A DNA stretch of 64,000 bases from an uncultured Gemmatimonadales bacterium (lineage in GTDB: Bacteria; Gemmatimonadota; Gemmatimonadetes; Gemmatimonadales; Gemmatimonadaceae): contig CAWKNZ010000007.1 of NCBI GenBank assembly GCA_963851265.1, positions 1 through 64,000 on the forward strand. Direction: 5' to 3'. The notes beneath the pieces were generated by a model that was not told the origin of the DNA, did no database searches, and worked only from the letters and a program-made list of their open reading frames with translations. Shown here in pieces: positions 10,801 through 37,245 of the stretch (position 1 is the stretch's first letter; every line of letters starts with the position of its first letter). Made by a program: the position numbers and the translations under genes.

Positions 10801-10807
10801 GGACTGA
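7805..10807 (+). CDS. GAF-PAS-GGDEF-EAL c-di-GMP cyclase/phosphodiesterase
   Basis: HDPLTGLANR, ARLGGDEF with RGCD I-site, FEALARW, IDDFGTGYSSL, LKIDKAF; start ATG 7805. Confidence 0.92.
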   Translation: MPAPHPAAAASLRDEARLAAVRRTALLDTAADEAFDRFTRLAARLLGTPATLVTLLDADRQFCKSAVGLDMPPAPEPAPSLPLSHSFCQHVVASGAPLVLDDVRNDAVHGANGAVRDFGAVAYAGVPLRTADGHVVGTFCALDRVPRAWDPADVAVLEDLARAVVTEIELRMALRAAETARETARVLLDASPDAFVAIDAQDRVTFMSELAGRIHACDPIAAVGRSLHGLLPAGDRAVATALHARVRSTGAPADIEMLSRGADASGERWTAMHAVPSGTGGVAIALRDVTERRNAENALREREAVLRQFVEHTPAAVAMFDREMRYLVASRRWCTDYGLAASGFTTETLVGTAHHLAFPYAPTGWQANYARVLAGDVVRCEDDTFTRGDGAVEHVRYEIRPWTTGDGAVGGVVMFTELTTAQVRAQAELRTSEARYRALTESSPEPIYLHRDGRVLYANPAGARLLGAPSPAALVGASVLNVFHADDAAAAREHLDALTRGEPQDGLYRYRLLRADGSEVEVESVSALVQLDGSPALQTLFRDVTERNALERELTYQAFHDPLTGLANRALFRDRLGHALARLASGRIDPAAHQLAVIYLDLDDFKTVNDSLGHAHGDALLREVAARLLRATRGCDTVARLGGDEFAALLEGMTSASDALTVVERITASLAAPVWMDGRELPARGSVGVAYARGDESADDLLRNADVAMYRAKSLGRGRHAVFEPGMHAALVARLEMEADLRHAVDRPAAGGLWVAYQPVIDIATGCVVSFEALARWTRPNGAVVPPLEFVPLAESSGLIVPLGRWVLGEACAQAARWRAATGCDVRVAVNVSARQLAQSAGLAGDVECALAAAGLPAAALTLEMTESVLMQRTDETLVRLGALKATGVQLAIDDFGTGYSSLAYLQRFPVDVLKIDKAFVDGVADEEGDRAIARTVLALGESLGLRIVAEGVERVEQRDALAAMGCAQGQGYLFARPLAAAEAGDVLRTLGARDLTPAD

Positions 10808-11423
10808 CCGGCGGGTCGAGATTGCGCCGCGCCCACCACACGCGCTGCGCGACGGTGACGTAGACGAGCGCGGCCATGAGGCCGAACAGCTCGGGCAGGC
10901 GCGCCGGGAGCGCGAGAAAGAGGGCGTAGAAGAGCACCGTTTCGGTGCCCGCGATGAGCCCTGGGGGCATCGTCACGGTCGTCAGCTCGCCGCGCGCCGC
11001 CGCGCCCGCGGCGCGCCGTTCGAGCACGGCCGAGAGGTACATCCACGACGCCGCGTTCACGAAGAACGAACCGACGAGCCCCACGCACGCGGCGAGCGCG
11101 GCGAACGTCGGACGGCCGAGCGCCAGGCCGGTCGGCACGGCGGCGTAGACGACGAAGTCGAGGAGGATGTCGAGATACCCGCCGAAGTCGGTCTGCCGCC
11201 CGTGCACGCGCGCGAGCGTGCCGTCGAGACCGTCGAGCAGGCGGTTGGCGGCCCAGAGCGCGAGCGCGGCGCCGTACTCCCGACGCCACGCCGCCGCGCC
11301 GCACGCGAGCCCGACGAGGCAGGCGAGGAACGTGACGCCGTCGGGCGCGACGCGCGGGCCGAGCAGGCGGGCGAGCGGCTCGAGGAGGCGGTCCTTGAGC
11401 GCGCGGAGGACGTCGTCGAACAC
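10791..11423 (-). CDS. CDP-alcohol phosphatidyltransferase family protein (YnjF-like)
   Basis: Signature DGLDGTLAR..GRQTDFGGYLDILLD, hydrophobic helices, GTET motif near the C-terminus; last gene of the ABC operon. Confidence 0.88.
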   Translation of the reverse strand: MFDDVLRALKDRLLEPLARLLGPRVAPDGVTFLACLVGLACGAAAWRREYGAALALWAANRLLDGLDGTLARVHGRQTDFGGYLDILLDFVVYAAVPTGLALGRPTFAALAACVGLVGSFFVNAASWMYLSAVLERRAAGAAARGELTTVTMPPGLIAGTETVLFYALFLALPARLPELFGLMAALVYVTVAQRVWWARRNLDPPVSPRA

Positions 11424-11439: not shown

Positions 11440-12528
11440 TCAGGCAGAGCCGGTCGCGAAGACCGGGATCCGGGGCGCGTCGGCGACGACGCCGACGGCG
11501 GCGCCGGGCGCGGGCGCGGCCCCAGGCGGAGCGGCCGCTTCGACGACCGCCGGCGCGAAGCCGTCGCGGACGACGCGGAGCCGCACCGTGGTCTGGCGCG
11601 CGCGGTGCCGCACGTCGACCACGGTCGCCGCCGCCGCGCCCGGGTGACCCGGGGGGACGAGGCGGAGCGCGTCGGGGCGGACGACCGCCGCCGCGGGGCC
11701 GGCGGCCGCGCCGACGGCCCAGCTGCCTAACGCACACGCGAAGCACCCGGCCCCGTCGACGGTGCCCGCGAGCTCCGCGCCGACGCCGAGGAATCGCGCC
11801 ACGGCGAGCGACGCGGGGCGCTCGAACAACTCGGCCGGCGGTGCGACCTGCAGCACGCGCCGTTCGGCGAGCACCGCGACGCGGTGGGCGAGCAGTCCGG
11901 CCTCGTCGAGGTCGTGCGTGACGAGCACGAGGGACGGGCGCGCGGAGGCCGGGGCCTGCGTCCCCTCCTGCGCGCGCACGATGGCCTCGCGCACGTCGTC
12001 GCGCAGCGACGGGTCGAGCGCGGCGAGCGGCTCGTCGAGCAGCAGCACCGCGGGGCGCGCGACGATGGCGCGCGCGAGCGCGACGCGGTGGCGCTGACCG
12101 CCACTCAGCGTGTGCGGCATCCGCGCGGCGTACTCGCCCATTCGCACGAGCTCGAGCGCGTCGCGCACGCGGCGGTCGACGTCGCCGCGCGGCACGCGGC
12201 GCACGCGCAGCGGGAAGGCGACGTTCTCGTACACACTCAGGTGCGCGAACGGCGTCGGCGTCTGGTGCAGGTAGACGGCGTCGCGTCGCTCGGGGGCGAG
12301 GGCGGTGACGTCGCGCGGCGCGGCGCCGGGTGCCGCGATCCAGATGCGGCCGGCGCGCACCGGCTCGAGGCCGGCTACCGCGCGCAGCAGCGTGGTCTTG
12401 CCAGCACCCGACGCGCCGAGGACGACGAGGCGCTCACCCGCGGCGACGTCGAGCGATACGGGCTGCAGGCCCGGGCCGCTCCCGAACCCGACCTCGACCC
12501 CGTCGAGCCGGAGCGCGGGGGCGTTCAC
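11440..12528 (-). CDS. ABC transporter ATP-binding subunit
   Basis: Walker A GASGAGKT, signature LSGGQ, Walker B LLLDEP, H-loop VTHD; GTG start overlaps the upstream TGA (GTGA). Confidence 0.9.
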   Translation of the reverse strand: MNAPALRLDGVEVGFGSGPGLQPVSLDVAAGERLVVLGASGAGKTTLLRAVAGLEPVRAGRIWIAAPGAAPRDVTALAPERRDAVYLHQTPTPFAHLSVYENVAFPLRVRRVPRGDVDRRVRDALELVRMGEYAARMPHTLSGGQRHRVALARAIVARPAVLLLDEPLAALDPSLRDDVREAIVRAQEGTQAPASARPSLVLVTHDLDEAGLLAHRVAVLAERRVLQVAPPAELFERPASLAVARFLGVGAELAGTVDGAGCFACALGSWAVGAAAGPAAAVVRPDALRLVPPGHPGAAAATVVDVRHRARQTTVRLRVVRDGFAPAVVEAAAPPGAAPAPGAAVGVVADAPRIPVFATGSA

Positions 12529-13319
12529 AGCGTCGGGACGGCGGTGCGCCGCGCGACGACGCGGGCCGCGGCGAGCGCGAGGAGCGGCGGCGCGCTCAGG
12601 AGCAGCGCGCCCGTCGCCGCGTACCGGTCCTGCCCCGAGCGCACATACGCGAACACCTCGGTCGCGAGCGTGCGTACCAGGCCGCCGCCGACGATCTGCG
12701 TGAGCGCGACCTGCGCCCAGCTCACGAGAAACGCCAGCGCGGCGGCCTCCGCGATCTGGCGGCGGAGCGCGGGGAAGGTGACGAGGCGGAGCGTCTGCCA
12801 CGGCGATGCGCCGAGCGTTCGCGCCTCCTCCTCCGGCCCGGCGTCGTACGCGGCGAACACGCCGAGGAAGTAGAGCGCGAGATAGCCGACCGCGGGCACC
12901 GCGTGGGCGAGCAGGACGCCGGCGGCGGTGCCGCCGAGGCCGAGGCGCAGGAAGTAGTACTGCACGCCGACGGCGACGGCGAGCGGCGGCGCCGCCACGG
13001 GGAGGAAGGCGAGTGCGGCGCCCAGGCCGCGCCGCCACCCGCCGAGGCCGGCGAGCGCGCGGCCGACGGGCAGGCCGAGCGCGACGCCCACCACCGCGGT
13101 GCCGGCGCCTAACGCCACGCTCCGTGCGGCGGCGACCCCGAGCGCACCGCCGGCGACCTGACGCCAACTCTCCGCGGTGAGCCCGGACGGCACGAGCGCG
13201 GGATAGAACCACGTCTCGCCGACGGACCAGGCCACGAGCAGGCCGAACGGCGTGAGGGCGGAAGTGGCGAGCAGCGTGACGAGGATTGCGCGCCCGGCGC
13301 GCGCGAGCGCGGGACTCAC
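12525..13319 (-). CDS. ABC transporter permease 2
   Basis: Hydrophobic, EAA loop EEEARTLGASPWQTLRLVTFP; GTGA coupling at both ends. Confidence 0.88.
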   Translation of the reverse strand: MSPALARAGRAILVTLLATSALTPFGLLVAWSVGETWFYPALVPSGLTAESWRQVAGGALGVAAARSVALGAGTAVVGVALGLPVGRALAGLGGWRRGLGAALAFLPVAAPPLAVAVGVQYYFLRLGLGGTAAGVLLAHAVPAVGYLALYFLGVFAAYDAGPEEEARTLGASPWQTLRLVTFPALRRQIAEAAALAFLVSWAQVALTQIVGGGLVRTLATEVFAYVRSGQDRYAATGALLLSAPPLLALAAARVVARRTAVPTL

Positions 13320-14185
13320 GCGCCGTCGCGTGCGGCGCCGCGCGTCGCCCACTCGTGCGCCGCGACGGCGGCCGCGGCGAGCAGCAGAGCGAGCAGCGTG
13401 AGCACGTACGCTCCGCCGCGTCGGCCGAGGTCGAGATCGGCGTGGCGCTCGCGGATGAGCGACTGGAGCGGGAGCGGGTCGCTCGGCCCGAGCAGCGCGG
13501 CGGCTTCGTAGCTTCCCGCGACGAATGCGAACACCGCGACGGCCGACGGGAGCAGCGCGCGCCAGAGCAGCGGCCACGTGACGCGCCGGAGTACGGCCCA
13601 CGGCGCGGCGCCGAGCGTGCGCGCGGCCTCCTCGGCGGCGGCACCGCGCGCGGCGAGCGCCGAGCCCGCGACGAGCGCGAGGAAGGGGCACTCCTTCCAC
13701 GCGAGGGCGGCGACGAGTCCCACGCCCCACCGGTCGTAGACGAGGGGCGGCATCGCCTGCGGCGCGGCGATGAGGCCGGCGGCGTGGCCGAGCCGTGCGA
13801 GCAACCCGCTCTGGCCCAGGATCAGCACGGCCGACGACGCCGCGACGACCTGCGGGATGGGCAGCGGCACGACCGCGAGCGCGCGCGCGACGCGGTCGAC
13901 GGCGCGCGTGCCGCGGAAGGTGGTCGCGACGACGGTCGCGGCGGCCGTGGCGAGTGCGGTGGCGAGCAGCGCGGTGCGCAGCGTCCACGCGACCGACGCC
14001 CACGTGCGCGGATCGCCGAGCACGCCGCCGAGCAAGGCCGTGGTGAAGCCGGCGGCGCCGACGCCCGCGAGGCCCACGGCGACCGCGGCCGAGTACGCGA
14101 TGCCGACGAGCACGGGGGTGGCGACGAGGAGCGCGGCGACGAGCGGAGCGCCGCTCGACCGCGCGTGGCGTTGGGCCGGGCTCAC
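13316..14185 (-). CDS. ABC transporter permease 1
   Basis: Hydrophobic, EAA loop EEAARTLGAAPWAVLRRVTWP, WKECPF motif; GTGA coupling. Confidence 0.88.
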   Translation of the reverse strand: MSPAQRHARSSGAPLVAALLVATPVLVGIAYSAAVAVGLAGVGAAGFTTALLGGVLGDPRTWASVAWTLRTALLATALATAAATVVATTFRGTRAVDRVARALAVVPLPIPQVVAASSAVLILGQSGLLARLGHAAGLIAAPQAMPPLVYDRWGVGLVAALAWKECPFLALVAGSALAARGAAAEEAARTLGAAPWAVLRRVTWPLLWRALLPSAVAVFAFVAGSYEAAALLGPSDPLPLQSLIRERHADLDLGRRGGAYVLTLLALLLAAAAVAAHEWATRGAARDGA

Positions 14186-15468
14186 CGGGCCCGCACGCGG
14201 GCGCGCCAGTCCGTCAGCAGCCGCTCGCTGTAGGCTGGCGCGACCTCGGGGCGCGCGTAGGCGGCGAGCGTGTCGGGCGGGATCGCGTCGGCCGCGCGCG
14301 CGACGGAGTCGAACCGCGCGCGCCACGCGGCCGGCAGTCGCGTGCGGGCGAGCACCGTGCCGTCGGCCCAGACCTCGGGGCGCTGCTTCTCGAACTGGGC
14401 TTCGGGCGACAGGAGGAAATCGGCGACGACCATACCGCCCGCCGCGTCGGGGGCGTTGTACGGGATGGCAAGGTAGTGGGCGTTCGCGATGGTGCCCTCA
14501 CGGAGCAGGACGGCGCGCGCGGTGCGCGGAAGCACCCCCTGGCGCACCTTCGTCACCACGTCGTTCTGGTTGTTGGACATGGTGAAGTCGACCTCGCCGT
14601 TGGCGAAGAGGCGGTGCAGGTCGGCGACGCCTTCGGGGTACGTCACGCCGCCGCGCCAGAACGCGGCGCGATTGGAGTCGATCCAGGCAAATACCGCCGC
14701 GCGGCCGGCGAGGTAGTCGGCCTCGCGGAAGCCGCCCGCGAATCGGCGCACCCCGCCCCCGCGCGCGTACATCAGCCCTTTCAGGAACGTGAGCCCGGTG
14801 AAGCTCTGGTCGTGCACGAAGCGCCCCGGGTGCGCGCGGACGTAGGCGCCGAGTTCCGCGTACGTGCGTGGCGGTCGCGGCGTGCGGACGGTGTCGTAGA
14901 TGAGCGCGAACTGCACCGTCCCCCACGGGCTCTCGAACCCCGCCGGGTCCTGCTCGAAGTCCCGGCTGATGATCGGCGACGCGCTGTCGACGTACACGCC
15001 GTTGGGCGCGCGCGCCGCCCACGGCCCGAACAGCAGCGCCGCGCGGCGCAGGTTGGCGAACGCCTCGCCGTTGACCCAGACGAGGCTCGAGGTGCCGACC
15101 GCGCGTCCGGCGTCGCGTTCGACCACGAGGTCGTTCACGAGTTCGGCGCCCTGCCCGTCGACCGGCCTGAGCGTGATACCGTAGCGCTGCTTCACGCGCG
15201 GCGCGACCCAGCCGTCGACGAACGCGTTGATGGACGGGTCGCCGCGCCACATCGTCCAGACGACGGTCGTCCCACGGGCGCGCGCCACGATCGAGTCCCA
15301 CGGCAACGTGGCGGCCTGCCGAGGCGACAGGCGCGCGGCGGGCGGCGCGTTCGGCCGGCTGCATGCGCCGGATGCAGCCGTCGCGGCCGCGAGCGCCGCG
15401 GCGATGATCCGCCGGCGCCACGGTACAGGAAGGGTCGGCCGGAGTTCCGTGGATGACGTCGACGTCAC
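14182..15468 (-). CDS. ABC transporter substrate-binding lipoprotein (YnjB-like)
   Basis: Lipobox-like ASGAC; WDSIVARARGTTV, ESPWG and GTIANAHYLAIPYNA..FLLSPEAQ motifs recalled from the YnjB family. Start uncertain (GTG 15468 or ATG 15543). Confidence 0.8.
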   Translation of the reverse strand: MTSTSSTELRPTLPVPWRRRIIAAALAAATAASGACSRPNAPPAARLSPRQAATLPWDSIVARARGTTVVWTMWRGDPSINAFVDGWVAPRVKQRYGITLRPVDGQGAELVNDLVVERDAGRAVGTSSLVWVNGEAFANLRRAALLFGPWAARAPNGVYVDSASPIISRDFEQDPAGFESPWGTVQFALIYDTVRTPRPPRTYAELGAYVRAHPGRFVHDQSFTGLTFLKGLMYARGGGVRRFAGGFREADYLAGRAAVFAWIDSNRAAFWRGGVTYPEGVADLHRLFANGEVDFTMSNNQNDVVTKVRQGVLPRTARAVLLREGTIANAHYLAIPYNAPDAAGGMVVADFLLSPEAQFEKQRPEVWADGTVLARTRLPAAWRARFDSVARAADAIPPDTLAAYARPEVAPAYSERLLTDWRARVRAR

Positions 15469-15651
15469 GAGGAGGTTCGGGAGGGTGAGCGCGGACGCGT
15501 CTAGCGAGATTCGTGCGACATCGCGTCCCGGTCCCGCTACCATCCGTTCTCCTGCGGCAATCGTAATCAAGCAGGTGCGCTCCGCGCCGACTGCCCTCCG
15601 CCCCACGCGCGCTTCTCCGTGCTCGTCACCCGTCCTCCCCGTCGCGGCTCC

Positions 15652-18519
15652 ATGCCGCCTTGTTCGCCCTCCGCGCGTCGCGCGCTTCATCCGCGCGCGC
15701 CGCGCGTCGCCGCCGTCTGCGCAGCGCTCGGCAGCGCGCTCGCGGTCCGCGCCGCGCACGCCCAGGCCTCGGTGGCGGGTACGGTGCGCGAGCCGAGCGG
15801 CTCGCCGGTGGCCGGCGCCGCCGTGGTCATCGACGGCCGGGGTGACACGACCCGCACCGACGCGCGCGGCCGCTTCCGGTTGCTGGTGCCGGCCGGCGCT
15901 TCCGGCACGCTGCGCGCGGCGCGCGAGGGATTCAGCGCCGCTTCGACGGCGTTCACCGCTGGGGCGGAGCGGACGACGCGCGAGGTCACGCTCGTACTGC
16001 CGCGCGTGGGGCAGCTCGCGGCCGTAACCGTGCGTGCGCCGTCGGCGGTGAGCCCGGCCGCGCTCCGCCCGCTCCTCGATTCGGTCGCCGCGACGACCGG
16101 CGGGTCGCTGTCGTACGCCGAGCTGCGCGTGCTGCCGACCGACAACCGCGACCCGCTCGCGCTGGCGTTCACGGTGCCGGGCGCGGCGCAGGCCAACGGC
16201 TTCTTCGACACCGCGCCCGAACTGACCCTCCTCGGGTCGAACTCGCTCTACACGCAGTACTACCTCGACGGCTTCGACAACAACGAGGGCGTGCTCGGCG
16301 GCCCGCGCATCGACCTGCCGCTCTCCGCGCTCCGCCGCCTCGACGTCCGCACGTCGAACTACGACGTCGTGCTGGGGCGCTCGTCGAACGGCGTCGTGAA
16401 CGAGGAGACGCTCGGCGGGACGGATGCGTGGCACGGCGAGGCGTTCGTCTACGGCCGCCCCGGCGGCAACTTCGACGCGCGCCAGGCCGTGCTCCCGCCC
16501 AACACGACGTCGGGGTTCCGGCGCGGGCAGGTCGGCGGATCGTTGGGCGGTCCGCTCGGCGCGGGTCGCACGCGGGTGTTCGCCGCGGCCGAGTACTCGG
16601 ACGAGAGCCAGGATCAGCCGATCGTGACCGGGTACGGGAACGCGACGGGCTCGGTCGAGCGGCGCCGCACGAAGGCGTTCGGCCGCCTCGACCAGCAGTG
16701 GAGCGCGACGCAGCAGACCACCGTGCACGCCGCCTTCAGCGACGGGCAGTTCATCGGTCGCGGTGCGGGCGTCACGACGCCCGAGGCCGATTACACCCAG
16801 AACCGGCTCGGCGCACTCCTCGGCGCGTCGCACACCAGCGACGTCGGCCCGAACACGCGTAACGTGCTGGGTGTGCAGCTGGCCGGCTATCACTGGACGT
16901 ATCCGCCGACGCAGACGTCGCTGACGACGCCGCAGGTCTCGATCCTCGACCCGAAGAACACCGACGTCACGCTCGCCGTCGTGGGCGCGAGCGGATTTCA
17001 GTACGACTCGCGCGAGCTGCAGGTCAACCTCAAGGACGAGTTCACGCACCGGTCGGGCGCGCACCTGCTCGCCGTCGGCGGCGACGTAATCCGCGGGCAG
17101 TTCCGGCTCGAAGGGGCGGGTACCAACCTCGCCGGCGCGTACGCGATCCTCGACACGGGGCAGATCAAGGTGCGAGGCCGGCTGCCGACGCTCGCCGACG
17201 TGCCGGCCAACTCGCCGGTGTTCGCCTACTCGGTCGACGCCGCCCCGCAGTACATCACCGGCTCGCAGAGCGTGTACGGCCTGTACGCCCAGGACCGCTG
17301 GGACCTCGCGCCGTCGGTGACGTTCACGTACGGGGTGCGGTGGGACTACGACGACCTCACCTCGCGCGGCGCGAGCAAGGCGGACCTGACCAACTTCCAG
17401 CCGCGCGCCGCGCTCAACTGGCGGCCGGACGGACGGACGGTGGTGCGCGGCGGCTTCGGCGTGTACTCCGGCAAGCTGCCCTACACGATCTACTCCGACG
17501 CCATCCAGTACGGGCCGAAGGGGACGGCGTACGTCACGTTCTACAACAGCCCGCAGACCCCGCTCACGTACGGCAGCCCGCCGGCCGCGAGCGCGCAGGG
17601 TGCCGCGGCGGCGGCGCTCCCCCCGCGCGAGATCCGCGCGTTCTTCGCCGACGGTCTCAAAAGTCCGCGCAGCTACCAGACGACCCTCGGCTTCGAGCGC
17701 GCGTTCGGGCGGGCGTGGGGCCTCTCGGTGGACGGGATCTGGGCCAACACGATCAACCTGCCGCGGCTCTACGACCTCAACGCGGTGAACCGCCTGATCG
17801 GGCCGGGCGACACGACGAACGCCGCGCCGACGGCCGGGGACGCGTACCGGCCGGTGGCGCCGGTCAACGGCGCCTACCGCGCGCTCACCACCACGCAGAC
17901 CGCCGGGCGCAGCACGTACATCGCGCTGAACGTCACCGGGCGGCACCAGTTCAGCGAGACGCTGACCGCCGACGTGACGTACGTGCTCTCGCGCGCGCGC
18001 AACAACACCGAAGACATCAACTTCGCATCGAGCAACGGCCGCAACGACTTCGCGGGCGAGTACGCCGACGCGGTGAACGACCGGCGCCACAAGCTCGACC
18101 TGCGCGGCTTCTACACGGCGGGCCGCGTGCGGCTGAGCGCGGTGGTGGACTACCAGTCGGGCACGCCGATCAACCGCGTGGCCGACCTCGACCTGCTGGG
18201 CACCGGCGGCAGCTACGGCGACGGGTTCATCCGCAACTCGCAGCGGTTCTACGGCGTGCCGCGCGACGGCGAGCGCCTGCCGGCCGCGTTCGAGGTCAAC
18301 CCCGGCGTGTCGTACATGCTGCCGACGGGCCGGGGCGCGTTGCTCGAGCTACGCGCCGAGGCGTTCAACCTCCTCAACCGCGCCAACTACTCCGGGTTTC
18401 CGAGCGGGCTGGCGTACCTGGATCCGCGCACCCAGACCGGCCGACCGGGGAACCCGGTCGCGTACGACGTCTCCGGGCGGCCGCGACAGCTGCAGTTCTC
18501 GGCGCGGTACGCCTTCTAA
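15652..18519 (+). CDS. TonB-dependent outer-membrane receptor with N-terminal carboxypeptidase-regulatory-like domain
   Basis: Signal peptide ending AHA-Q, VAGTVREPSGSPVAGAAV N-domain, plug YYLDGFDNN, YAQDRW..TYGVRWD, C-terminal beta-signal RQLQFSARYAF. Confidence 0.88.
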   Translation: MPPCSPSARRALHPRAPRVAAVCAALGSALAVRAAHAQASVAGTVREPSGSPVAGAAVVIDGRGDTTRTDARGRFRLLVPAGASGTLRAAREGFSAASTAFTAGAERTTREVTLVLPRVGQLAAVTVRAPSAVSPAALRPLLDSVAATTGGSLSYAELRVLPTDNRDPLALAFTVPGAAQANGFFDTAPELTLLGSNSLYTQYYLDGFDNNEGVLGGPRIDLPLSALRRLDVRTSNYDVVLGRSSNGVVNEETLGGTDAWHGEAFVYGRPGGNFDARQAVLPPNTTSGFRRGQVGGSLGGPLGAGRTRVFAAAEYSDESQDQPIVTGYGNATGSVERRRTKAFGRLDQQWSATQQTTVHAAFSDGQFIGRGAGVTTPEADYTQNRLGALLGASHTSDVGPNTRNVLGVQLAGYHWTYPPTQTSLTTPQVSILDPKNTDVTLAVVGASGFQYDSRELQVNLKDEFTHRSGAHLLAVGGDVIRGQFRLEGAGTNLAGAYAILDTGQIKVRGRLPTLADVPANSPVFAYSVDAAPQYITGSQSVYGLYAQDRWDLAPSVTFTYGVRWDYDDLTSRGASKADLTNFQPRAALNWRPDGRTVVRGGFGVYSGKLPYTIYSDAIQYGPKGTAYVTFYNSPQTPLTYGSPPAASAQGAAAAALPPREIRAFFADGLKSPRSYQTTLGFERAFGRAWGLSVDGIWANTINLPRLYDLNAVNRLIGPGDTTNAAPTAGDAYRPVAPVNGAYRALTTTQTAGRSTYIALNVTGRHQFSETLTADVTYVLSRARNNTEDINFASSNGRNDFAGEYADAVNDRRHKLDLRGFYTAGRVRLSAVVDYQSGTPINRVADLDLLGTGGSYGDGFIRNSQRFYGVPRDGERLPAAFEVNPGVSYMLPTGRGALLELRAEAFNLLNRANYSGFPSGLAYLDPRTQTGRPGNPVAYDVSGRPRQLQFSARYAF

Positions 18520-18577: not shown

Positions 18578-19045
18578 GTGACGGAGCGGGCGACCGTCAC
18601 GGCGCGCTTCGCCGCGGGCGCGGTCGGCGTCCTCACGGCGCACCAGGCTGCCGTATGGGCGCTGCACCGCGCGGGCGTGGTGCCGTGGCCCGCGTACTCG
18701 GTGGTGCCGACGCGGCCGTTCGGCGTCCCGCAGGTGCTGTCGGCGGCCTTCTGGGGGGGCGTGTGGTGGGTCGCGCTCGGGCCGGTCGTCGAGCGTGCCG
18801 AATCGCGCGCGGGCTACGCGGCGCGCGCGGCCGTGTTTGGCGCGGTGCTGCCGACGGCCGTGGGGGCGGTGCTCGTGGCGGCCGGGCGCGGGGCCCCGCG
18901 GGGCGACGCGCGCCCGGCGACGCTGCTCGCCGCCGGGCTGGCCGTGAACGCGGCCTGGGGGCTTGCCGCCGCGGCCGTGGTCTGGTTCACGCGCGCGCGA
19001 CCGCCTGGTAGCGGCGCACGAAGCGCGCGTCGATCGCGCGCTTGA
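18578..19045 (+). CDS. Hypothetical membrane protein (about 4 TM helices)
   Basis: Hydrophobic 155-aa ORF with PTRPFGVPQVLSAAFWGGVW, directly after the receptor. Confidence 0.65.
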   Translation: MTERATVTARFAAGAVGVLTAHQAAVWALHRAGVVPWPAYSVVPTRPFGVPQVLSAAFWGGVWWVALGPVVERAESRAGYAARAAVFGAVLPTAVGAVLVAAGRGAPRGDARPATLLAAGLAVNAAWGLAAAAVVWFTRARPPGSGARSARRSRA

Positions 19046-20123
19046 GCGCGAGGGCGGCGCGCGAGTGACTCGCGACGCCGCGCCAGCGGGCGAAGGCGCG
19101 CCCGTCCGCGGTGTCGAGTGCGGCCAGGAAGTGTCGCTGCGGGACGTACGCCCGCGGCGTTAGGCGCCCCCCGTCGGCGGCCGCGCGCAGGTTGTGCGCG
19201 AGCACCGGCGCCTCGCGCACCGCGTACACGCCGGCCTTGGGCACCCACGGCGCCCCGTCGAGCGCGGCGCAGTCGCCTGCGCCCCACACGCGCACGCCGC
19301 CGACCGCGCGCAGCGTGGCGTCCACGCGCAGGTACCCGCCCGCGTCGACGGGGAGCCCGGCCTCGCGCGCGAGCGGGAGCGCGGCGGCGCCTGGCACCCA
19401 CACGGTCAGGTCGGACGCGAGTCGCAAGCCGTCGGCGAGCGTGACGGCGTCGGCGTCGACGCGCACCACCGCGTGCCCGGTCAACAGCCGCACCCCGCGC
19501 CGCCCCAGCAGCCGCTGCACGCGCGCCGCCTGCCGTCCCCAACTCGGGAGCAGCGCGGGCCCCCCCTCGACGACGGTGACCTGAGCGTCGCGCCCTGCCG
19601 CGCCCGCGCGCGCGACGACGGCGAGCGAGAGCTCCACCCCGGCCGCGCCGCCGCCCACGACGACGCAGGCGAACGGGCCGACGTCCGGCTCCGTGGCGAG
19701 TGCGTCGAGCCGGGCGACGAGCGCGCGCCAGGCGGCGAGCGGGCGCACGGTGTGGGCGTGCGCGCGGGCACCGGGGACGTCGAGTGCCGCGGGAATCGAG
19801 CCGACGTCGAGCGAGAGCAGGTCGCCGGTGACGACCTCGCCGGCCGCGTGCACCGCGACCGCGTCGGGCGCGACCTCGAGGCGCGACGCCGCGGCCTCGA
19901 CGAAGCGCGCGCCGGCGGCGCGGCAGAGCGCGGGCAGGTCGACGGCGAGGGCGGACTCGACCCACGCTCCGCGGAGCTGCGCGGGCATCATCCCCGAGTA
20001 CACCTGGCGCGCGTACGGCGACACGAGCACCAACTCCGCCGCGAACGGGCGCAGCGCTGCCGCGCGGAGGACCTCGAGGTGCGCGTGCCCGCCTCCCACG
20101 AGCACGAGCCGTCGGCGCGCCAC
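18987..20123 (-). CDS. FAD/NAD(P)-dependent oxidoreductase resembling the domain found N-terminal to SelD (TIGR03169-like)
   Basis: LVLVGGGHAH, YSGMMP, VVGGGAAGVE, WGAGDCA, PKAGVYAVR, YVPQRHFL, LKRAIDARFV; start approximate. Confidence 0.82.
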   Translation of the reverse strand: MARRRLVLVGGGHAHLEVLRAAALRPFAAELVLVSPYARQVYSGMMPAQLRGAWVESALAVDLPALCRAAGARFVEAAASRLEVAPDAVAVHAAGEVVTGDLLSLDVGSIPAALDVPGARAHAHTVRPLAAWRALVARLDALATEPDVGPFACVVVGGGAAGVELSLAVVARAGAAGRDAQVTVVEGGPALLPSWGRQAARVQRLLGRRGVRLLTGHAVVRVDADAVTLADGLRLASDLTVWVPGAAALPLAREAGLPVDAGGYLRVDATLRAVGGVRVWGAGDCAALDGAPWVPKAGVYAVREAPVLAHNLRAAADGGRLTPRAYVPQRHFLAALDTADGRAFARWRGVASHSRAALALKRAIDARFVRRYQAVARA

Positions 20124-20152: not shown

Positions 20153-21706
20153 TCAGCGCACCACGCGAAAGTAGCCCGCCAACAACCCCTTGACGCGCGG
20201 CGTGAGCTTGCGCCGCCGCCACGCGTCGGCCGCCTTGCGCAGCGCCTCGCTCTGGGTGGGGTACGGGTGCATCGTGCGACCGATGGCCGAGAGGCCGAGC
20301 TTGTTGGTCATTGCGAGGGTGAGCTCGCCGATCGTCTCGCCCGCGTGTGCTCCGACGAGCGTCGCCCCGACGAGGCGGTCGGTGCCGCGGGCCACGAGCA
20401 CGCGGCAGAACCCTTCGGTCTCGTCGTCGATCACCGCACGGTCCACTTCGGCCAGGGGAACGGTGATGACGTCGACCGCGACGCCCCGGGCCGCGGCCTC
20501 CTGCTGCGTGAGGCCGACCTGGGCCACCTCGGGACTCGTGTAGGTCACCCAGGGCGTGACCAGCGCGCTCGCGCGACCGCGGCCGAAGAAGAGCGCGTTC
20601 TGCACGACGAGCCGCGCCTGGAAGTCGGCCGCGTGCGTGAACTTGAGCGGCGAGCAGACGTCGCCGACCGCGTAGACGCGCGGGTTGCTGGTGCACAGGC
20701 GGTCGTCGACGGTGACGCCGCCGCGCGCGTCGTAGTGCACCCGGGCCGCCTCGAGCCCGAGTCCGTCCACGTTCGGCGTCCGCCCAACGGCGACAAGCAG
20801 CGCGTCGGCGTCGAGCGTCAGGTCGTGTCCGGCGTGCCGCACGTGCAGACTCGCGTCGCCCCCGCGCGTGTGGACGCGCGTGACCTCGGCCCCGTGCAGC
20901 ACGTGCACGCCGTCGCGCGCGAGCGCGCGCTCCACGACTGCCGCCGCCTCCGCGTCGTCGCGCTCGAGCAGGCGTGCGCCGCGGTCGAGCAGCGTCACAC
21001 GCGCGCCGAGTCGCGCGAACGCCTGGGCGAGTTCGCAGCCGATCGGGCCCGCGCCGAGGACGACGAGGTGTGCGGGGCGGCGCGTGAGCGAGAAGATCGT
21101 CTCGTTGGTGTAGTACGGCGCATCGCGCAGGCCGGGGACGTCGGGGACGGCGGCGCGGGCGCCGGCCGCGATCACCGCGCGGCGGAACGTCAGGCGCGCG
21201 CCGTCGACCTCGACCGCGTCGGGCGCGACGAAGCGTGCGTCACCGAGGAACACGTCCACGCCGAGTTCGCGGAAGCGCGGGGCGCCGTCGACGGGGGCGA
21301 GACCGGCGCGGACGTCGCGAAGCCGCTCCATGGCCGCGACGAAGTCGCCGTCACCGTCCGCGCGCGGCCCCCCGAAGCGCTCGGCCGCGCGGCGCGCGTC
21401 GTGCCAGGCGCGCGCCGCGCGGATCACGCTCTTGGACGGGACGCACCCCACGTTGAGGCAGTCGCCGCCCATGAGGGAGCGCTCGACGAGGGCGACGCGG
21501 GCGCCGAGTCCGGCGGCGGCGGCGGCGGTGACGAGGCCACCCGTGCCCGCGCCGACGACGACGAGGTGGTAGCGGCCGGCGGGGGCCGGGTTCCGCCAAT
21601 CGCGCGGGTGCACCTGCGCGACCAGGCGCTCGTCGGCGGCGTCGCCCGCGAGGAGCGTGGGGTGGGCCGCGCCCGGGCGGCCCCCGATCGGCGGGGCCGC
21701 GCTCAT
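20153..21706 (-). CDS. Class I pyridine nucleotide-disulfide oxidoreductase (MerA/LpdA-like)
   Basis: GAGTGG, redox pair GGDCLNVGCVPSK, GAGPIGCE, HPYPTQSE; no C-terminal Cys-Cys. Confidence 0.88.
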   Translation of the reverse strand: MSAAPPIGGRPGAAHPTLLAGDAADERLVAQVHPRDWRNPAPAGRYHLVVVGAGTGGLVTAAAAAGLGARVALVERSLMGGDCLNVGCVPSKSVIRAARAWHDARRAAERFGGPRADGDGDFVAAMERLRDVRAGLAPVDGAPRFRELGVDVFLGDARFVAPDAVEVDGARLTFRRAVIAAGARAAVPDVPGLRDAPYYTNETIFSLTRRPAHLVVLGAGPIGCELAQAFARLGARVTLLDRGARLLERDDAEAAAVVERALARDGVHVLHGAEVTRVHTRGGDASLHVRHAGHDLTLDADALLVAVGRTPNVDGLGLEAARVHYDARGGVTVDDRLCTSNPRVYAVGDVCSPLKFTHAADFQARLVVQNALFFGRGRASALVTPWVTYTSPEVAQVGLTQQEAAARGVAVDVITVPLAEVDRAVIDDETEGFCRVLVARGTDRLVGATLVGAHAGETIGELTLAMTNKLGLSAIGRTMHPYPTQSEALRKAADAWRRRKLTPRVKGLLAGYFRVVR

Positions 21707-21757: not shown

Positions 21758-22456
21758 TCACGGGGCGATGCCGGTCGGGTCGGCCGCCGTGCCTAACGCG
21801 TGGCGCGCGAGCCGCGTGATGCGCGCCGTCACGGCCGCGGTCGCGGCGAGGCCGAGCGCGAGCACGGCGTAGTACGCGGCGCCGCGCGGGGGCGTGCCGC
21901 CGCCCGCGGCGGCGGCGACGTCGCCGGCGAGCTTGCCGTAGTACACGTAGAGGAGCGTACCGGGAAGCATCCCGACCGAAGCGACGGCGAAGTCGGCGAA
22001 GCGCACGCGCGTGAGGCCGAGCACGTAGTTGAGCAGGGTGAACGGGACGGCCGGGGAGAGGCGGAGCAGGAAGACGATGCGCCGCCCGTCGCCCGCGATC
22101 GCGCGGTCGATCGCGGCGAAGCGCGCGTTGCCGGCGATGCGGCGCTCCACGAATCCGCGCGCGACGTAGCGCCCGACGAGGAACGCCGCGGACGACCCGA
22201 GAGTTGCCCCGACGAACACCCAGAGCGTGCCGGCCGCGAGCCCGAAGATTGCTCCGGCCGCGAGGGTGAGCAGCGAACCCGGGATGCCGGCGACGGTGGC
22301 GACCACGTAGCCGACGACGAACGCGATCGGCCCCCACGCCCCCATGGCGTGCACGCGCTCGGCGAAGCCCGGCACGTAGTGGCCGCCCCAGCGGCCGAGC
22401 AGGAGCAGCCCGGCAACGGCGGCGACACCGAGAAGAATGCGGAAGGGTTTGGCCAT
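21758..22456 (-). CDS. TVP38/TMEM64 (VTT/DedA superfamily) membrane protein
   Basis: IPGSLLTLAAGAIFG, AFLVGRY, LLRLSPAVPFTLLNY, GMLPGT. Confidence 0.9.
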   Translation of the reverse strand: MAKPFRILLGVAAVAGLLLLGRWGGHYVPGFAERVHAMGAWGPIAFVVGYVVATVAGIPGSLLTLAAGAIFGLAAGTLWVFVGATLGSSAAFLVGRYVARGFVERRIAGNARFAAIDRAIAGDGRRIVFLLRLSPAVPFTLLNYVLGLTRVRFADFAVASVGMLPGTLLYVYYGKLAGDVAAAAGGGTPPRGAAYYAVLALGLAATAAVTARITRLARHALGTAADPTGIAP

Positions 22457-22632: not shown

Positions 22633-23487
22633 ATGCGCCACCCCGCCGTTCGCCGACCCGCCGCCCGATCGCGCGTGCGCGCCCGCCTGCTGGCCGTCGC
22701 GCTGCTGACCGTCGGCATCCTTCGTCCCGCCGCGCCCGTGCACGCGCAGGATCGCACTTTCGACCACGGCGCGTTCGACGCGCTCCTCAAGGCGCACGTG
22801 CGCAACGGGCTCGTCGACTACGACGCGTTCGCCGCCTCAGCGGAGTTCAAGCGCTACCTGGGCCGGCTCGCCGCCACGGACCCGGCCACGCTCGGGCGCG
22901 ACGATCAGCTCGCGTTCTGGATCGACGCGTACAACGCGTACACGATCGCGCTCATCAACGAGCACCACGAGCGCGAGTCGATTCGCAACATCAACAAGAC
23001 GCTCGGGTTCGTGAAGGCGTACGGGCCCTGGAAGGAGAAGCTCGCGACGGTCGGAGGAAGGAGCTACGGGCTGGACGAGATCGAGCAGGACATCATCCGC
23101 CCGCGCTACCACGAGCCGCGCGTGCACTTCGCGCTCGTCTGCGCCGCGATGGGGTGCCCGCCGCTGCGCAGTGAGGCGTACACGGGGGCGCAGCTCGACG
23201 CGCAACTCGACGACCAGGCCCGCCGGTTCCTGCTCCACTCGCCGACCAAGAACCGCGTCGACGTCGCGAGCAAGACGGTGTACCTGAGCCCGATCTTCGT
23301 CGAATTTCGCGACTACATCAAGGACTTCGGCGGGTCCGAGGGCGCGGTGGGCCGGTACATCGCGCGCTTCTACCCGGCGGGCCCGGAGCGGACGCTGCTC
23401 GAGGGCGGCGACTTCAAGGTCGTGAAGACCCACTACGACTGGACGCTGAACAGCCAGTCCAACGGCGCGCGCGTCGCGGCGCGGTAG
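22633..23487 (+). CDS. DUF547 domain exported protein
   Basis: Signal peptide (VHA-Q), GLVDY, LAFWIDAYNA, PRVHFALVCAAMGCPPL, YDWTLN. Confidence 0.85.
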   Translation: MRHPAVRRPAARSRVRARLLAVALLTVGILRPAAPVHAQDRTFDHGAFDALLKAHVRNGLVDYDAFAASAEFKRYLGRLAATDPATLGRDDQLAFWIDAYNAYTIALINEHHERESIRNINKTLGFVKAYGPWKEKLATVGGRSYGLDEIEQDIIRPRYHEPRVHFALVCAAMGCPPLRSEAYTGAQLDAQLDDQARRFLLHSPTKNRVDVASKTVYLSPIFVEFRDYIKDFGGSEGAVGRYIARFYPAGPERTLLEGGDFKVVKTHYDWTLNSQSNGARVAAR

Positions 23488-23489: not shown

Positions 23490-24923
23490 GTGGCGACCGC
23501 GAAGTCACTGCTCGACACCGTCCGCCGGCCGGTGGGCGACGAGGCCCGCGCGTTGCTCGCCCGCAACTGGGGCGGGCTCGCGCCCGAGATGCGCGTGCCG
23601 CAGCAGATGTTCGGCCGGCAGGGCAACGGCTGCGGCGCGACCATCGGCGCGATGCCGCGCTGCGACTTCGCGTGCCGCGGCTGCTACCTGAACGCCGACG
23701 CGAACCGCGCCCCGGCCGAGTCGGTCGAGGCGATCAAGGGGCAGATGCGGCTGCTGCGCCCGGTGTTGGGCCACGCCGGCAACCTGCAGATCACCGACGG
23801 CGAGGTCACGCTCCGCCCCGCCGAGGAGGTCGTCGAGCTGCTGCGCTACGCGCGGTCGCTCGACCTCATCCCGATGCTGATGACGCACGGCGACTCGTTC
23901 CGCCGGCGCCCGGGGCTGCTGGAACGGCTCATGGTCGAGGGCGGGCTCACCGAGGTGAGCATCCACGTCGACACGACGCAGCGCGGGCGGCAGGGCGAGC
24001 GGTGGCGCGCGGCGCGCACCGAGGCCGAGCTGAACCCGCTCCGCGCCGAGTTCGCCGAGATGATCCGCGCGGCGGAGCGCGCGACCGGGCGCGTCTTGCG
24101 GGCGGCGACTACGATGACCGTGACGCGCGACAACCTCGACGGGGTGACCGACGTGGTGCGCTGGGTGACGGCGCACGCCGACGCGTTCCGACTCGTCAGC
24201 TTCCAGCCGATCGCGCAGGTCGGGCGCACCGAGGAGGCCTACGGCGGCGGCGTCGACGTCGAGGCCCTGTGGGACCGGGTGGCCGTGGGGCTCGGCGTCG
24301 ACGGCGGGTCGGCGCGCATGGCCGAGCTGGGCGTGTGGTTCGGCCACCAGGCGTGCAACCGGATGGTGAACGGCGTCGTGGTGCGCGGCCCCGCCGGCGG
24401 GACGGCGTTTCACGCGCTGCGTGACGCGCGCAGCGACGTCGACACCCGCATCGTGGACGGGTTCCTGGCGCGGTTCGGCGGGATCTCGTTCCGACTCGAT
24501 ACGGCGCGCGAGCGTACGGCGCGGCTCGCGGGCGTGGCGCGCGCGGCGCCGGGCTTCGTCTTCGGCAACCTCGTGCCCTACGCGGCGCACTGGCTGCGGC
24601 GCGTGGGGCGGGGGAGCGCCGTGCGCGGCGCGTGGCACCTCGCGACGCGGCGCGCGACCGCGCAGCCGCTCGTGCTCGTGAGCCACCACTTCATGAGCCG
24701 CGAGGAGATCGAGACCCCGTTAGGCCGCGAGCGGCTGGCGCACTGCGTGTTCCAGGTGCCCGTCGACGGCGAGCTCGTGTCGATGTGCGAGGTGAACGCG
24801 CTCGGCATCCGCGAGCGGTACTACGCGCAGCTCGGGCGGACGCGGGCCGGGCGCGGGCCGGGCGGGACGGCGGCGTCCCCCGCGAACGCGGCCGCCGCGG
24901 AGGGGTTGCCGGGGACGGCGTGA
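23490..24923 (+). CDS. Radical SAM protein of unknown function
   Basis: CxxxCxxC motif CDFACRGC; additional Cys in HQAC and C-x13-C near the C-terminus. Confidence 0.85.
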   Translation: MATAKSLLDTVRRPVGDEARALLARNWGGLAPEMRVPQQMFGRQGNGCGATIGAMPRCDFACRGCYLNADANRAPAESVEAIKGQMRLLRPVLGHAGNLQITDGEVTLRPAEEVVELLRYARSLDLIPMLMTHGDSFRRRPGLLERLMVEGGLTEVSIHVDTTQRGRQGERWRAARTEAELNPLRAEFAEMIRAAERATGRVLRAATTMTVTRDNLDGVTDVVRWVTAHADAFRLVSFQPIAQVGRTEEAYGGGVDVEALWDRVAVGLGVDGGSARMAELGVWFGHQACNRMVNGVVVRGPAGGTAFHALRDARSDVDTRIVDGFLARFGGISFRLDTARERTARLAGVARAAPGFVFGNLVPYAAHWLRRVGRGSAVRGAWHLATRRATAQPLVLVSHHFMSREEIETPLGRERLAHCVFQVPVDGELVSMCEVNALGIRERYYAQLGRTRAGRGPGGTAASPANAAAAEGLPGTA

Positions 24924-24987: not shown

Positions 24988-25209
24988 GTGGCTCGCCCCG
25001 TCGGTCTCCGCAACACGATCGTCTTCGCGATCGGCGTCGTCATGATGGCGCTCGGCGCGTACGTCGTGGCGCACCCGCTCTGGTCGGGCGGGCACACCGT
25101 GACCGAGTCGCGACTCCTGGACGCGATGCTCGCGCTGTTCTTCCTCGTGCGCGGGTGGATGAACGTGCGCACGTCGACGGGCCGCCCGCTGTTCGGGGTG
25201 CGGCCGTGA
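24988..25209 (+). CDS. Small two-helix membrane protein
   Basis: 73 aa, two hydrophobic segments, stop overlaps the next GTG. Confidence 0.55.
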
Positions 25210-25694
25210 GCGATCGCCTGCGCATCGCGAGCGGCACGCCCTGGGAGGCGGAGGTCGGCTACAGTCGTGCCGTGCGCGTGGGGCCGTTCGTGCACGTCTC
25301 CGGCACCACCGCGACCGGGCCCGACGGGGCGATCGTCGGGGCGGGTGACATGTACGCGCAGGCGCGACAGGCGCTCGCCAACGTCGTTCGCGCACTCGCG
25401 GCCGCGGGGGCGACGCCGGCCGACGTGGTCCGCACGCGGATGTTCGTCACCGACATCGCGCAGTGGGAGGCCGCCGGACGCGCGCACGGCGAGGTGTTCG
25501 GCGCGGTCCGCCCCGCGACGGCGATGTACGGCATCACGGCCCTCGTCGACCCCCTGATGCTGATCGAGATCGAGGCGGACGCGTACGTGGACGCGTCCGC
25601 GGACGCGTCCGTGGACGCGTCCGTGGACACGCGTGCGGATACGCCCGCGGACGTGCCCGGGGACGCGCCCGCGGAGACGCCGGACGTGGCGTGA
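25206..25694 (+). CDS. RidA/YjgF/UK114 family protein
   Basis: [45 protein letters not shown]. Confidence 0.88.
25575..25682 (+). repeat. About nine degenerate 12-bp tandem repeats (G[CT]GGACGCGTCC-like) encoding the Rid C-terminal tail
   Basis: gcggacgcgtac gtggacgcgtcc gcggacgcgtcc gtggacgcgtcc gtggacacgcgt ... Confidence 0.8.
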
Positions 25695-31570: not shown

Positions 31571-32407
31571 GTGACCGTCCGCAGTCAGTTGCCCGCCGTC
31601 CTCGCCGAGCACGAGGCGGCGTTGCTGGACCAGTGGCTGCGCGCGCAGGCCGGCGGCGGCGGCGCGCTCGACGCCGGGTCGCGGGCGCAGAGCGCCGAGT
31701 TCCTCGCGCTGCTGCGCGACGCCGCGCAGACGGCCGGCGTCGAGAACACGCGCGGGCCCGGGTACGCGCCGGTGCAGACGTTCCTCGCGCAGATGGTGCG
31801 CACCCGGATGCAGCAGGGTGAGACGCCGAGCCAGGTGGCGACGTTCGTGTTCTCGCTGAAGGAGCCGCTGTTCGCCTTGCTCCGCGAGCGCCACGCCGAC
31901 GACGCGGCCGCACTCGGCGACGAGACGTGGGCGGCGACGCTGCTGCTCGACGCGCTCGGCCTCTACACCACCGAGGTGTACCAGCGCACGCGCGAGGAGG
32001 TGATCGCGCGGCAGCAGCAGGACATGTTGGAGCTGTCGACCCCCGTCGTGAAGCTGTGGGACGGCATCCTCGCGCTGCCGATGATCGGCACGCTCGACAG
32101 CGCGCGTACGCAGGTGGTGATGGAGACGCTGCTGCAGCGCATCGTGGAGACGGGCGCCGCGGTCGCGGTCATCGACATCACCGGCGTGCCCACGGTGGAC
32201 ACGCTCACCGCACAGCACCTGCTCAAGACCGTCACCGCGGCGCGGCTGATGGGCGCGGACTGCATCATCAGCGGCATCCGCCCGCAGATCGCGCAGACCA
32301 TCGTGCACCTGGGCGTCGACCTCGCCGGCGTGACGACGAAGGCCACGCTCGCCGACGCATTCCGCGCGGCGCTCGTGCGAACCGGGCAGACGGTCCTCCG
32401 CGGCTGA
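31571..32407 (+). CDS. rsbR: Stressosome RsbR (N-terminal sensor plus STAS)
   Basis: ELSTPVVKLWDGILALPMIGTLDSAR, IDITGVPTVDT, SGIRPQIAQTIV; CAGGAG RBS. Confidence 0.9.
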   Translation: MTVRSQLPAVLAEHEAALLDQWLRAQAGGGGALDAGSRAQSAEFLALLRDAAQTAGVENTRGPGYAPVQTFLAQMVRTRMQQGETPSQVATFVFSLKEPLFALLRERHADDAAALGDETWAATLLLDALGLYTTEVYQRTREEVIARQQQDMLELSTPVVKLWDGILALPMIGTLDSARTQVVMETLLQRIVETGAAVAVIDITGVPTVDTLTAQHLLKTVTAARLMGADCIISGIRPQIAQTIVHLGVDLAGVTTKATLADAFRAALVRTGQTVLRG

Positions 32408-32417
32408 GGGCGACGAC

Positions 32418-35946: not shown

Positions 35947-35950
<4 letters not shown>
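34406..35950 (+). CDS. Histidine kinase with N-terminal RsbT-like domain and coiled coil
   Basis: DVVLARQRAR..TAVSEIARN; SHELRTPL, NLVGNALKY, DTGVGI, GTGLGL. Confidence 0.88.

Positions 35951-37245
<1,295 letters not shown>

Follow-up and report, generated by a model that had tools for sequence, protein, structure and literature searches.

The window, i.e., the whole stretch of 64,000 nucleotides that was analysed, encodes a radical SAM enzyme of a real and uncharacterised protein family, which is derived from Tes yet is not Tes, and which is linked to the open question of arsenolipids. Tes (MJ0619 of M. jannaschii, GDGT-MAS; PDB 7TOL/7TOM; NF045702) is the closest solved relative of the enzyme. 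The leading reading, put forward tentatively, is that the enzyme represents a shortened, unnamed branch of Tes/GDGT-MAS and may couple a radical on a lipid tail to methylarsenic(III) in arsenosugar or arsenolipid metabolism. A role in organoarsenic metabolism as such, with the lipid-tail and arsenosugar readings taken jointly, is given a little over an even chance. A 5'-deoxyadenosyl radical is implied by the conserved SAM site, a second cluster and a probably lipid-like substrate are suggested by the retention of the Tes C-terminal domain, and the organoarsenic role is suggested by the gene context. Through this family, which comprises a named candidate enzyme, algal homologues, and a compact operon of the cultured Cupriavidus sp. 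KK10, the arsenolipid question becomes directly testable.

The gene, its surroundings, and the extent of the family

The ORF of the enzyme, as read from the sequence, begins with GTG 2 nt past the TAG codon of the DUF547 gene (Table 1), and its G+C content at codon position 3 is 0.98. These two genes are co-oriented, and those of the VTT protein, the PRK06370-type reductase, and the second flavoprotein run divergently from them. The reductase has its redox CxxxxC motif and no Cys among its last 25 residues, while the binding protein of the ABC importer probably starts further upstream than called. The lipid-related neighbours noted in the sequence-only reading are real, as family matches in the window identify a CDP-alcohol phosphatidyltransferase and a VTT/DedA protein. 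An open frame upstream of the enzyme was considered as the source of a hidden N-terminal domain and rejected, as it overlaps the DUF547 gene and contains no Cys. The host genome is 94% complete and carries ArsM above the cut-off on another contig, and it has no ArsS, TIGR04283, or TIGR04282. That the genome contains another Tes-like gene was considered and rejected, as the match with the better NF045702 score (L091), located beside molybdopterin/molybdate genes, is tentatively interpreted as a MoaA-type protein.

Table 1. Features of the enzyme gene and of its neighbours, in positions of the window
Feature	Position	Strand	Basis and remarks
Tes-clade radical SAM enzyme, 477 aa, without N-terminal metal domains	23490..24923	+	ORF, motif and profile comparison
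CX3CX2C radical SAM cluster motif (C58, C62, C65)	23661..23684	+	conserved C48 ten residues before the motif
FQPxAxxGR loop	24201..24227	+	Q239/A242/R246 align with Tes Gln268/Ser271/Arg275, 5'-deoxyadenosine-binding loop
C289, predicted auxiliary-cluster ligand	24354..24356	+	235/235 members; aligned to Tes C-terminal Cys
H399, at the place of Tes labile ligand Met439	24684..24686	+	232/235 and 119/119 members; profile alignment
C419 and C433, predicted auxiliary-cluster ligands	24744..24788	+	233/235 and 231/235 members, respectively; profile alignment
DUF547 protein, signal-peptide-like N-terminus, invariant CxxxxCP	22633..23487	+	constant partner of the enzyme; co-oriented, 2-nt gap
VTT (TVP38/DedA-like) membrane protein	21758..22456	-	divergent from the DUF547 gene
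FAD disulfide oxidoreductase	20153..21706	-	NF004991 (PRK06370) above cut-off
Pyridine nucleotide-disulfide oxidoreductase, TIGR03169-like	18987..20123	-	294.5 bits, below the cut-off of 310; start codon uncertain
TonB-dependent-type outer-membrane receptor	15619..18519	+	same family in 10/80 related genome loci
ABC importer: binding protein, two permeases, ATPase	11440..15306	-	binding protein NF008633/PRK11622 above cut-off
CDP-alcohol phosphatidyltransferase	10791..11423	-	labelled in 9/80 related genome loci

The close homologues of the enzyme are named as Gemmatimonadota proteins. At E≤1e-5 the search returned 1410 homologues among 7999 scored candidates, reduced to 622 representatives at 50% identity, unrelated radical SAM cores included, and a search made with the actinobacterial/algal branch returned 1690 of 7999. 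Of 416 collected proteins 277 are full-length, and from these the 235 non-redundant members used for residue counts were drawn; a second, actinobacterial/algal set comprises 119. The plasmid-borne members, from Cupriavidus, Burkholderia, and Roseomonas, are only ca. 28% identical to the query enzyme. The named eukaryotic members come from Rhodosorus, Porphyridium, Chondrus, Gracilariopsis, Agarophyton, Mesostigma, and Cyanophora, and those aligned keep the radical SAM motif together with C289, H399, C419, and C433. Six of these seven carry acid-poor N-terminal extensions of 35–119 residues, the Chondrus model being truncated; by these features, the extensions may be plastid transit peptides. 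No named brown alga or chlorophyte is found among the best 120 matches of either search, in which many matches are nameless.

Kinship with Tes and departure from it

All the motif strings on which the first proposal of a Tes likeness was based are found in the ORF, namely, CDFACRGC (C58/C62/C65), QITDGEVTLR, TMTVTRDNLDGVTDVVRW, VSFQPIAQVGR, GHQAC (C289), HHFM (H399), and RLAHCVFQVPVDGELVSMCEVN (C419, C433). They are far beyond chance, since the Pfam Radical_SAM match of the enzyme is above the cut-off, homologues are many, and C289, C419, C433, and H399 are conserved, in the 235 members at the frequencies given in Table 1 and in all 119 proteins of the second set. The kinship with Tes/GDGT-MAS is borne out by a profile of 35 family sequences, which aligns to residues 110–503 of the 7TOL chain, i.e., to both the radical SAM core and the C-terminal domain, with E=1e-23; the next match, SkfB, has E=3e-5 and comprises the core only. 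The enzyme sequence on its own matches 7TOL across the core with E=9e-8.

In the profile alignment the FQP..GR, HxxC, RxxC, and C..N motifs land on their Tes counterparts, and the radical SAM cluster motif and the residues of Tes binding 5'-deoxyadenosine/Met are retained in the enzyme. The SAM/5'-deoxyadenosine contacts of Tes correspond to those of the enzyme as follows: Phe106/Y66, Gly145/G104, Asp199/D161, Thr238/T210, Gln268/Q239, Ser271/A242, and Arg275/R246, the residue numbers given in PMC9433317 falling in register with an offset of 20 residues. The Tes Cys with which C289, C419, and C433 are aligned have, by count from the alignment, the native positions 338, 455, and 470. As described in PMC9433317, the C-terminal auxiliary cluster of Tes is held by three Cys and Met439; Cys 338, 455, and 470 are presumably these ligands. 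In the covariation analysis (437 rows, effective number 223) the top pair is A288–L411 (z 11.2), and N290–V420 (z 6.1) is also among the pairs, which puts C289 near the R415–C419 stretch, with no strong link to C433.

The enzyme departs from Tes in several respects. Tes has a rubredoxin site, C9X2C12X20C33X2H36, according to PMC9433317, and an N-terminal auxiliary [4Fe-4S] site (C73, C77, C80, His), whereas only 57 residues precede the CX3CX2C motif of the enzyme, with C48 as the sole Cys. The apparent absence of the rubredoxin domain had been noted from the sequence, and it holds for the whole set, as no rubredoxin-like pattern is found in the ORF or in the N-termini of the 235 members. C48 as a family-specific arsenic ligand is unsupported, as it is also present in two of four ordinary bacterial Tes homologues. 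Met439 of Tes is replaced in the enzyme family by His399, and in the enzyme Tyr459 is replaced by Val and the strand-4 residues Tyr195/Gln197 by Ser/His; a 23-residue Tes segment is absent, and the gene context differs from that of Tes. The replacement of GGEP by DGEV, likewise pointed out earlier, is present here, but it is clade-specific: G104 is invariant, while position 103 is occupied by D, S, A, and G in 186, 20, 17, and 12 of the 235 members, respectively, and by G in all 119 of the actinobacterial/algal set, so DGEV was discarded as a family hallmark. H159 (234/235 members) is family-specific, with Gln in its place in Tes-like proteins. Residues 330–395 are basic and rich in aromatic residues, and they show a weak alignment with helices in the C-terminal domain of Tes; a lipid pocket could not be derived from their hydrophobic moments, which, at 0.3–0.39, are no higher than those of the barrel helices.

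The NF045702 (Tes) score of the enzyme is 55.7 bits against the curated cut-off of 450, and even the most Tes-like members of the family score only 71.5–81.1. In a quick tree of 64 rows, built with long-branch outgroups and without archaeal Tes, from which no claim on rooting is drawn, the family is separate from the four ordinary bacterial Tes homologues, in which GGEP and the N-terminal sites are retained. Profile kinship, combined with the loss of the N-terminal sites, the Met439 to His change, and the separate placement in the tree, assigns the enzyme by sequence to the Tes clade and not to the Tes family. In the prediction of branched GDGT producers from genomes it is a weak look-alike, which should not be counted as Tes; bacterial Tes homologues have been discussed as possible brGDGT enzymes by Zeng et al. 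(PMC8941075).

Gene neighbourhoods and arsenic genes

The neighbourhoods were compared in three samples: from genomes, the best 80 of 207 loci (64 from Gemmatimonadota); from metagenomes, the best 80 of 490; and, out of 49 plasmid records, including 47 from Burkholderia, four. Adjacency was counted with tblastn, as ORF calling missed the enzyme in ca. 9 of 80 loci per set. A DUF547 gene lies within 600 bp of the enzyme in 53/80 genome, 40/80 metagenome, and 4/4 plasmid loci, and, where each flank measures 5 kb or more, it is present in 32/34 genome and 11/13 metagenome loci. P0164 and P0217 are fusions of DUF547 with the enzyme. A hydrophobic N-terminus in 63 of 87 DUF547 proteins makes the protein look exported; DUF547 is common also without the enzyme (81/251 genomes of the phylum sample), and no arsenic role for it was found in the literature consulted. 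The VTT gene and the reductase gene occur in 32/80 and 25/80 genome loci, respectively, and in 1/80 and 2/80 metagenome loci. Rhodanese-like genes are present in 10/80 genome loci and 1/80 metagenome loci, a nucleoside hydrolase gene in 4/80 and 10/80, a methylthioribose kinase gene in 2, and an MTA phosphorylase gene in 2/4 plasmid loci. All seven loci with a PrdB-like gene have in it an in-frame TGA in a UxxC motif. No gene of fatty-acid or ether-lipid synthesis recurs among the common neighbours of the enzyme.

Genes of the arsenosugar set (ArsM, ArsS, TIGR04282, TIGR04283, TIGR04169) are located in 7/80 genome, 3/80 metagenome, and 4/4 plasmid loci, by conservative thresholds and with many contigs being short. 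The arsenic link reappears in distant branches of the family. A plasmid of Cupriavidus sp. KK10 has a same-strand run comprising, in this order, genes for an ArsM-like and a YciW-related protein, ArsS, an FAD reductase, VTT, TIGR04283, TIGR04282, MTA phosphorylase, the enzyme, and DUF547, with an ArsI-family gene ca. 6 kb away. In Burkholderia plasmids arsS is located three genes upstream of the enzyme gene, and in B. glumae the phosphorylase and both transferases lie ca. 10 kb away, while the Roseomonas plasmid shows the order TIGR04282–DUF547–enzyme. Outside the plasmids, ArsS is found in the loci L054, L058, L064, and L158, and an arsenosugar-type ArsM (512.7 bits vs the cut-off of 400) adjoins the enzyme in L118. 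The L059 locus comprises TIGR04283, TIGR04282, VTT–reductase, DUF547, the enzyme, a hydrolase, and a kinase, and its genome gave no ArsS match. TIGR04283 is fused to the N-terminus of the enzyme in P0247 and to the C-terminus in Streptomyces P0361, members of different subfamilies, in which the fusions arose independently.

ArsS is present in 4 of 7 Gemmatimonadota carriers of the enzyme vs 21 of the 251 genomes of the phylum sample (p=0.001, the related genomes being not independent); this sample includes an unpublished genome (G153) used for tallies only. In 50 of the 79 distinct carrier genomes, MAGs of unstated completeness among them, ArsS was found in 14 and TIGR04283 in 18, which speaks against a strict dependence of the enzyme on them. 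ArsM is not enriched (33/50 carriers vs 182/251 genomes of the sample), and its presence was dropped as support for an arsenic role, as it reflects the baseline frequency.

Candidate reactions and known systems

In the preferred reading, SAM would be cleaved at the radical SAM cluster, and the resulting 5'-deoxyadenosyl radical would take a hydrogen from the end of an acyl chain, as in Tes; the chain would presumably sit in the C-terminal helical domain. An auxiliary [4Fe-4S] cluster with 3Cys+His ligation would serve to hold the radical or to accept the surplus electron, and addition of the alkyl radical to dimethylarsenic(III) would give a C–As bond on the lipid tail. ArsM would supply the dimethylarsenic(III) and the FAD disulfide reductase encoded nearby would keep it reduced; in the envelope, the product would be taken care of by the VTT protein and the exported DUF547. 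Such coupling needs ArsM and a reductase, not ArsS, which fits the host genome; in this genome, devoid of ArsS and both arsenosugar glycosyltransferases, the receptor, the ABC importer, and the CDP-alcohol phosphatidyltransferase would supply scavenged organoarsenic. This reading is favoured by the Tes kinship over both domains, the residue conservation, the covariation pairs, the basic and aromatic stretch of residues 330–395, the arsenic loci, the TIGR04283 fusions, the frequency of ArsS among the Gemmatimonadota carriers, and ArsM in the host genome. Its boldest form, in which the whole family would be an arsenolipid synthase with a 3Cys+His auxiliary cluster, welding dimethylarsenic to the terminal carbon of a lipid chain and common to bacteria of soil and water, to actinomycetes, and to plastids of red algae, of glaucophytes, and of Mesostigma, is doubtful. 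Counting against coupling to a lipid tail, the host genome and 36 of 50 carriers have no ArsS match, and arsenic genes are missing from the surroundings of most loci; AsHC are reported from brown algae and Dunaliella (according to PMC11009773), yet no named brown alga or chlorophyte is among the best 120 matches; and a free acyl chain accords less well with a glycosyltransferase fusion than a substrate linked to an arsenosugar would. A Cys for arsenic binding could not be pointed out in the enzyme.

In another proposal, the enzyme would act in the same arsenosugar system on the sugar end, making, remodelling, or breaking the As–C5' bond of a 5'-substituted adenosine, an arsenoriboside, or an arsenosugar phospholipid, as a partner of or a stand-in for ArsS. 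Though rather unlikely, it accounts for the transferase fusions and the recurrent adenine-releasing neighbours (nucleoside hydrolase, methylthioribose kinase, and MTA phosphorylase) better than the coupling of a lipid tail to arsenic does, and it agrees with L059, where both transferases, the hydrolase, and the kinase occur in a genome without an ArsS match. A precedent is provided by HpnH/HpnG, in which adenosylation is followed by the loss of adenine (as outlined in PMC13459092). A simple replacement of ArsS is, however, weakened by the co-occurrence of both enzymes in four loci named above and in three plasmid loci, and the C-terminal domain of Tes would be needless for a small polar substrate. 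A further proposal, Tes-like C–C coupling of two lipid tails to membrane-spanning or macrocyclic lipids, with the arsenic genes as fellow travellers, is quite unlikely. The closest solved relative is GDGT-MAS and the auxiliary-cluster Cys are kept; the M439A and Y459 variants of Tes stay active (PMC9433317), so that the His and Val changes need not abolish coupling; Gms performs related C–C chemistry without a rubredoxin domain (PMC13459092); and the CDP-alcohol phosphatidyltransferase and the VTT protein are close by. Nevertheless, the enzyme is far under the Tes cut-off and apart from the four bacterial Tes homologues in the quick tree, two independent TIGR04283 fusions and the Cupriavidus run are left unexplained, and no lipid synthesis gene of the kinds named above recurs nearby. 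Members also occur in red algae, from which tail-linked lipids are not known. Nothing in the analysis supports the C–C coupling or membrane-spanning lipids suggested by the sequence-only reading.

The thiolated lipid intermediate formed by Tes (PMC9433317) suggests another reaction, the insertion of S or Se into a lipid or other hydrophobic substrate by release of the C–S intermediate formed on the auxiliary cluster of Tes, with the neighbours recycling thiols or selenols. The rhodanese-like genes of the genome loci, the PrdB-like UxxC gene, and the two flavin disulfide reductases are in line with it, but these redox genes would be expected equally if arsenic has to stay in the trivalent state, rhodanese is nearly missing from the metagenome loci, and neither the TIGR04283 fusions nor the ArsM/ArsS context is explained, which leaves it improbable. 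Finally, the Tes fold may have been repurposed for a non-lipid substrate, e.g., for a modification tied to the exported DUF547, without relation to arsenic in most lineages. DUF547 is the sole near-constant partner in loci with sufficient flanks and is fused to the enzyme in two proteins, and His159 in the barrel is family-specific; on the other hand, DUF547 looks exported while an Fe–S enzyme should be cytoplasmic, and the basic and aromatic character of the C-terminal helices hints at contact with the membrane. This option is judged unlikely.

If coupling to arsenic is true, the Tes scaffold is used for chemistry besides tail joining. AsFA and AsHC are described in PMC4950057 as having a biosynthetic origin apart from that of arsenosugar lipids, and PMC11009773, which reports AsHC from brown algae and Dunaliella, invokes pathways of arsenolipids still to be found and partly under genetic control. 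No description of the family was found in the literature consulted on DUF547, tetraether synthase homologues, and arsenosugars/arsenolipids; members may be listed in the supplementary data of Lloyd et al. and in those of Zeng et al. No word beginning with "arsen" occurs in the main text of a 2026 review of lipid-modifying radical SAM enzymes (PMC13459092).

Among known systems, the TrsS radical SAM (seleno)protein (NF045646) belongs to the same superfamily branch, with the enzyme scoring 50.3 bits against the cut-off of 490. The ordinary bacterial Tes homologues (L175–L179) belong to this branch as well; hhalign of the enzyme family against the four gives a probability of 98.6 over 232 columns, and they retain the N-terminal CxxC..CxxH, GGEP, and the Met before the F-x-D motif. 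No SPASM/twitch Cys-rich C-terminal domain was detected, as Pfam gives Radical_SAM only and SkfB matches the core only. The enzyme is not ArsS, as had been suggested from its sequence: it has no TIGR04167 match at E≤0.1 (NCBIfam) and no DUF3641 match at E≤0.01 (Pfam). ArsS (TIGR04167, DUF3641) shares with it the gene set of DUF547, VTT, PRK06370 reductase, TIGR04282/04283, TIGR04169, and ArsM, but the enzyme is ca. 130 aa longer, has a Tes-type C-terminal domain, and co-exists with ArsS in several loci. ArsS adds an adenosyl radical to DMA(III), and the arsenic radical gives an electron back to a cluster (as described in PMC13598754); in chemical terms, the addition of this radical to As(III) serves as the precedent for the reaction proposed here. 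Radical C–As bond formation on As(III) is also ascribed to ArsL of arsinothricin synthesis (bioRxiv 2024.02.01.577332), where it proceeds by ACP radical transfer in a protein with an RCCLKC arsenic-binding tail, whereas the enzyme is without such a tail and keeps the 5'-deoxyadenosine-binding loop of Tes.

Plasmid-borne clusters

The compact arsenosugar-type run on plasmid p1 of Cupriavidus sp. KK10 carries no annotation in the plasmid table and is well suited to studying the later stages of arsenosugar synthesis. An ArsI-family gene lies close to it; three further genes nearby read, by sequence, as two of ArsC-like type and one aquaporin-like. Matches to the enzyme, the Tes-clade radical SAM protein of the window, are found in 47 Burkholderia plasmid records; on the Burkholderia glumae plasmid (L182, L184) thioredoxin and CcdA genes, a DUF692/DUF2282/DoxX cluster, and genes for an ECF sigma factor and its anti-sigma partner adjoin the block of arsS, the enzyme and its apparently exported partner DUF547.

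Features discussed, with location and strand
Feature	Location	Strand	Basis
Compact arsenosugar-type run, Cupriavidus sp. KK10 plasmid p1	L183:319-18623
PrdB/GrdB-like gene, example	L018:9311-9790	-
Unnamed radical SAM gene	L015:4309-5286
Unnamed radical SAM gene	L181:11242-12189
Unnamed radical SAM gene	L037:16818-18626
Unnamed radical SAM gene	L161
73-aa membrane protein and Rid-family hydrolase, both 3' of the enzyme and on its strand	window 24988-25694	+
Run including phosphatase-like protein and histidine kinases	window 31571-37245	+	translations
ABC importer, then CDP-alcohol phosphatidyltransferase	window 10791-15306	-
TonB-type receptor facing these genes	window 15619-18519	+

Recurrent genes at chromosomal and other loci

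Additional unnamed radical SAM genes occur repeatedly in clusters carrying the enzyme, one type adjoined by a metallophosphoesterase gene and another by a phosphate-transporter family gene. The Acidobacteriota genome G253 encodes two ordinary Tes-like homologues (L175, L179; about 301 bits) together with a member of the enzyme family. A PrdB/GrdB-like gene lies near the enzyme at loci L015, L018, L020, L029, L030, L037, and L060, and in all seven it is interrupted by an in-frame TGA within V-P-V-stop-P-x-C; the split gene reads as encoding a UxxC selenoprotein. In some Gemmatimonadales (L013, L017, L035, L044) genes for a phytoene desaturase-like protein, phytoene synthase, and an acyltransferase precede the DUF547-enzyme-rhodanese block and share its strand.

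Neighbouring genes in the window

Neither the 73-aa membrane protein nor the Rid-family hydrolase recurs among the related genome loci, and the run further downstream is what we take to be an RsbR/RsbS/RsbT-like signalling module. At L028, L034, and L073 the genes for a TonB-type receptor, a CDP-alcohol phosphatidyltransferase, and the enzyme are consecutive. The receptor, importer, and phosphatidyltransferase could constitute a salvage route to phosphatidyl-arsenosugar; the importer and phosphatidyltransferase genes of the window resemble the ynjBCD/ynjF module of E. coli.
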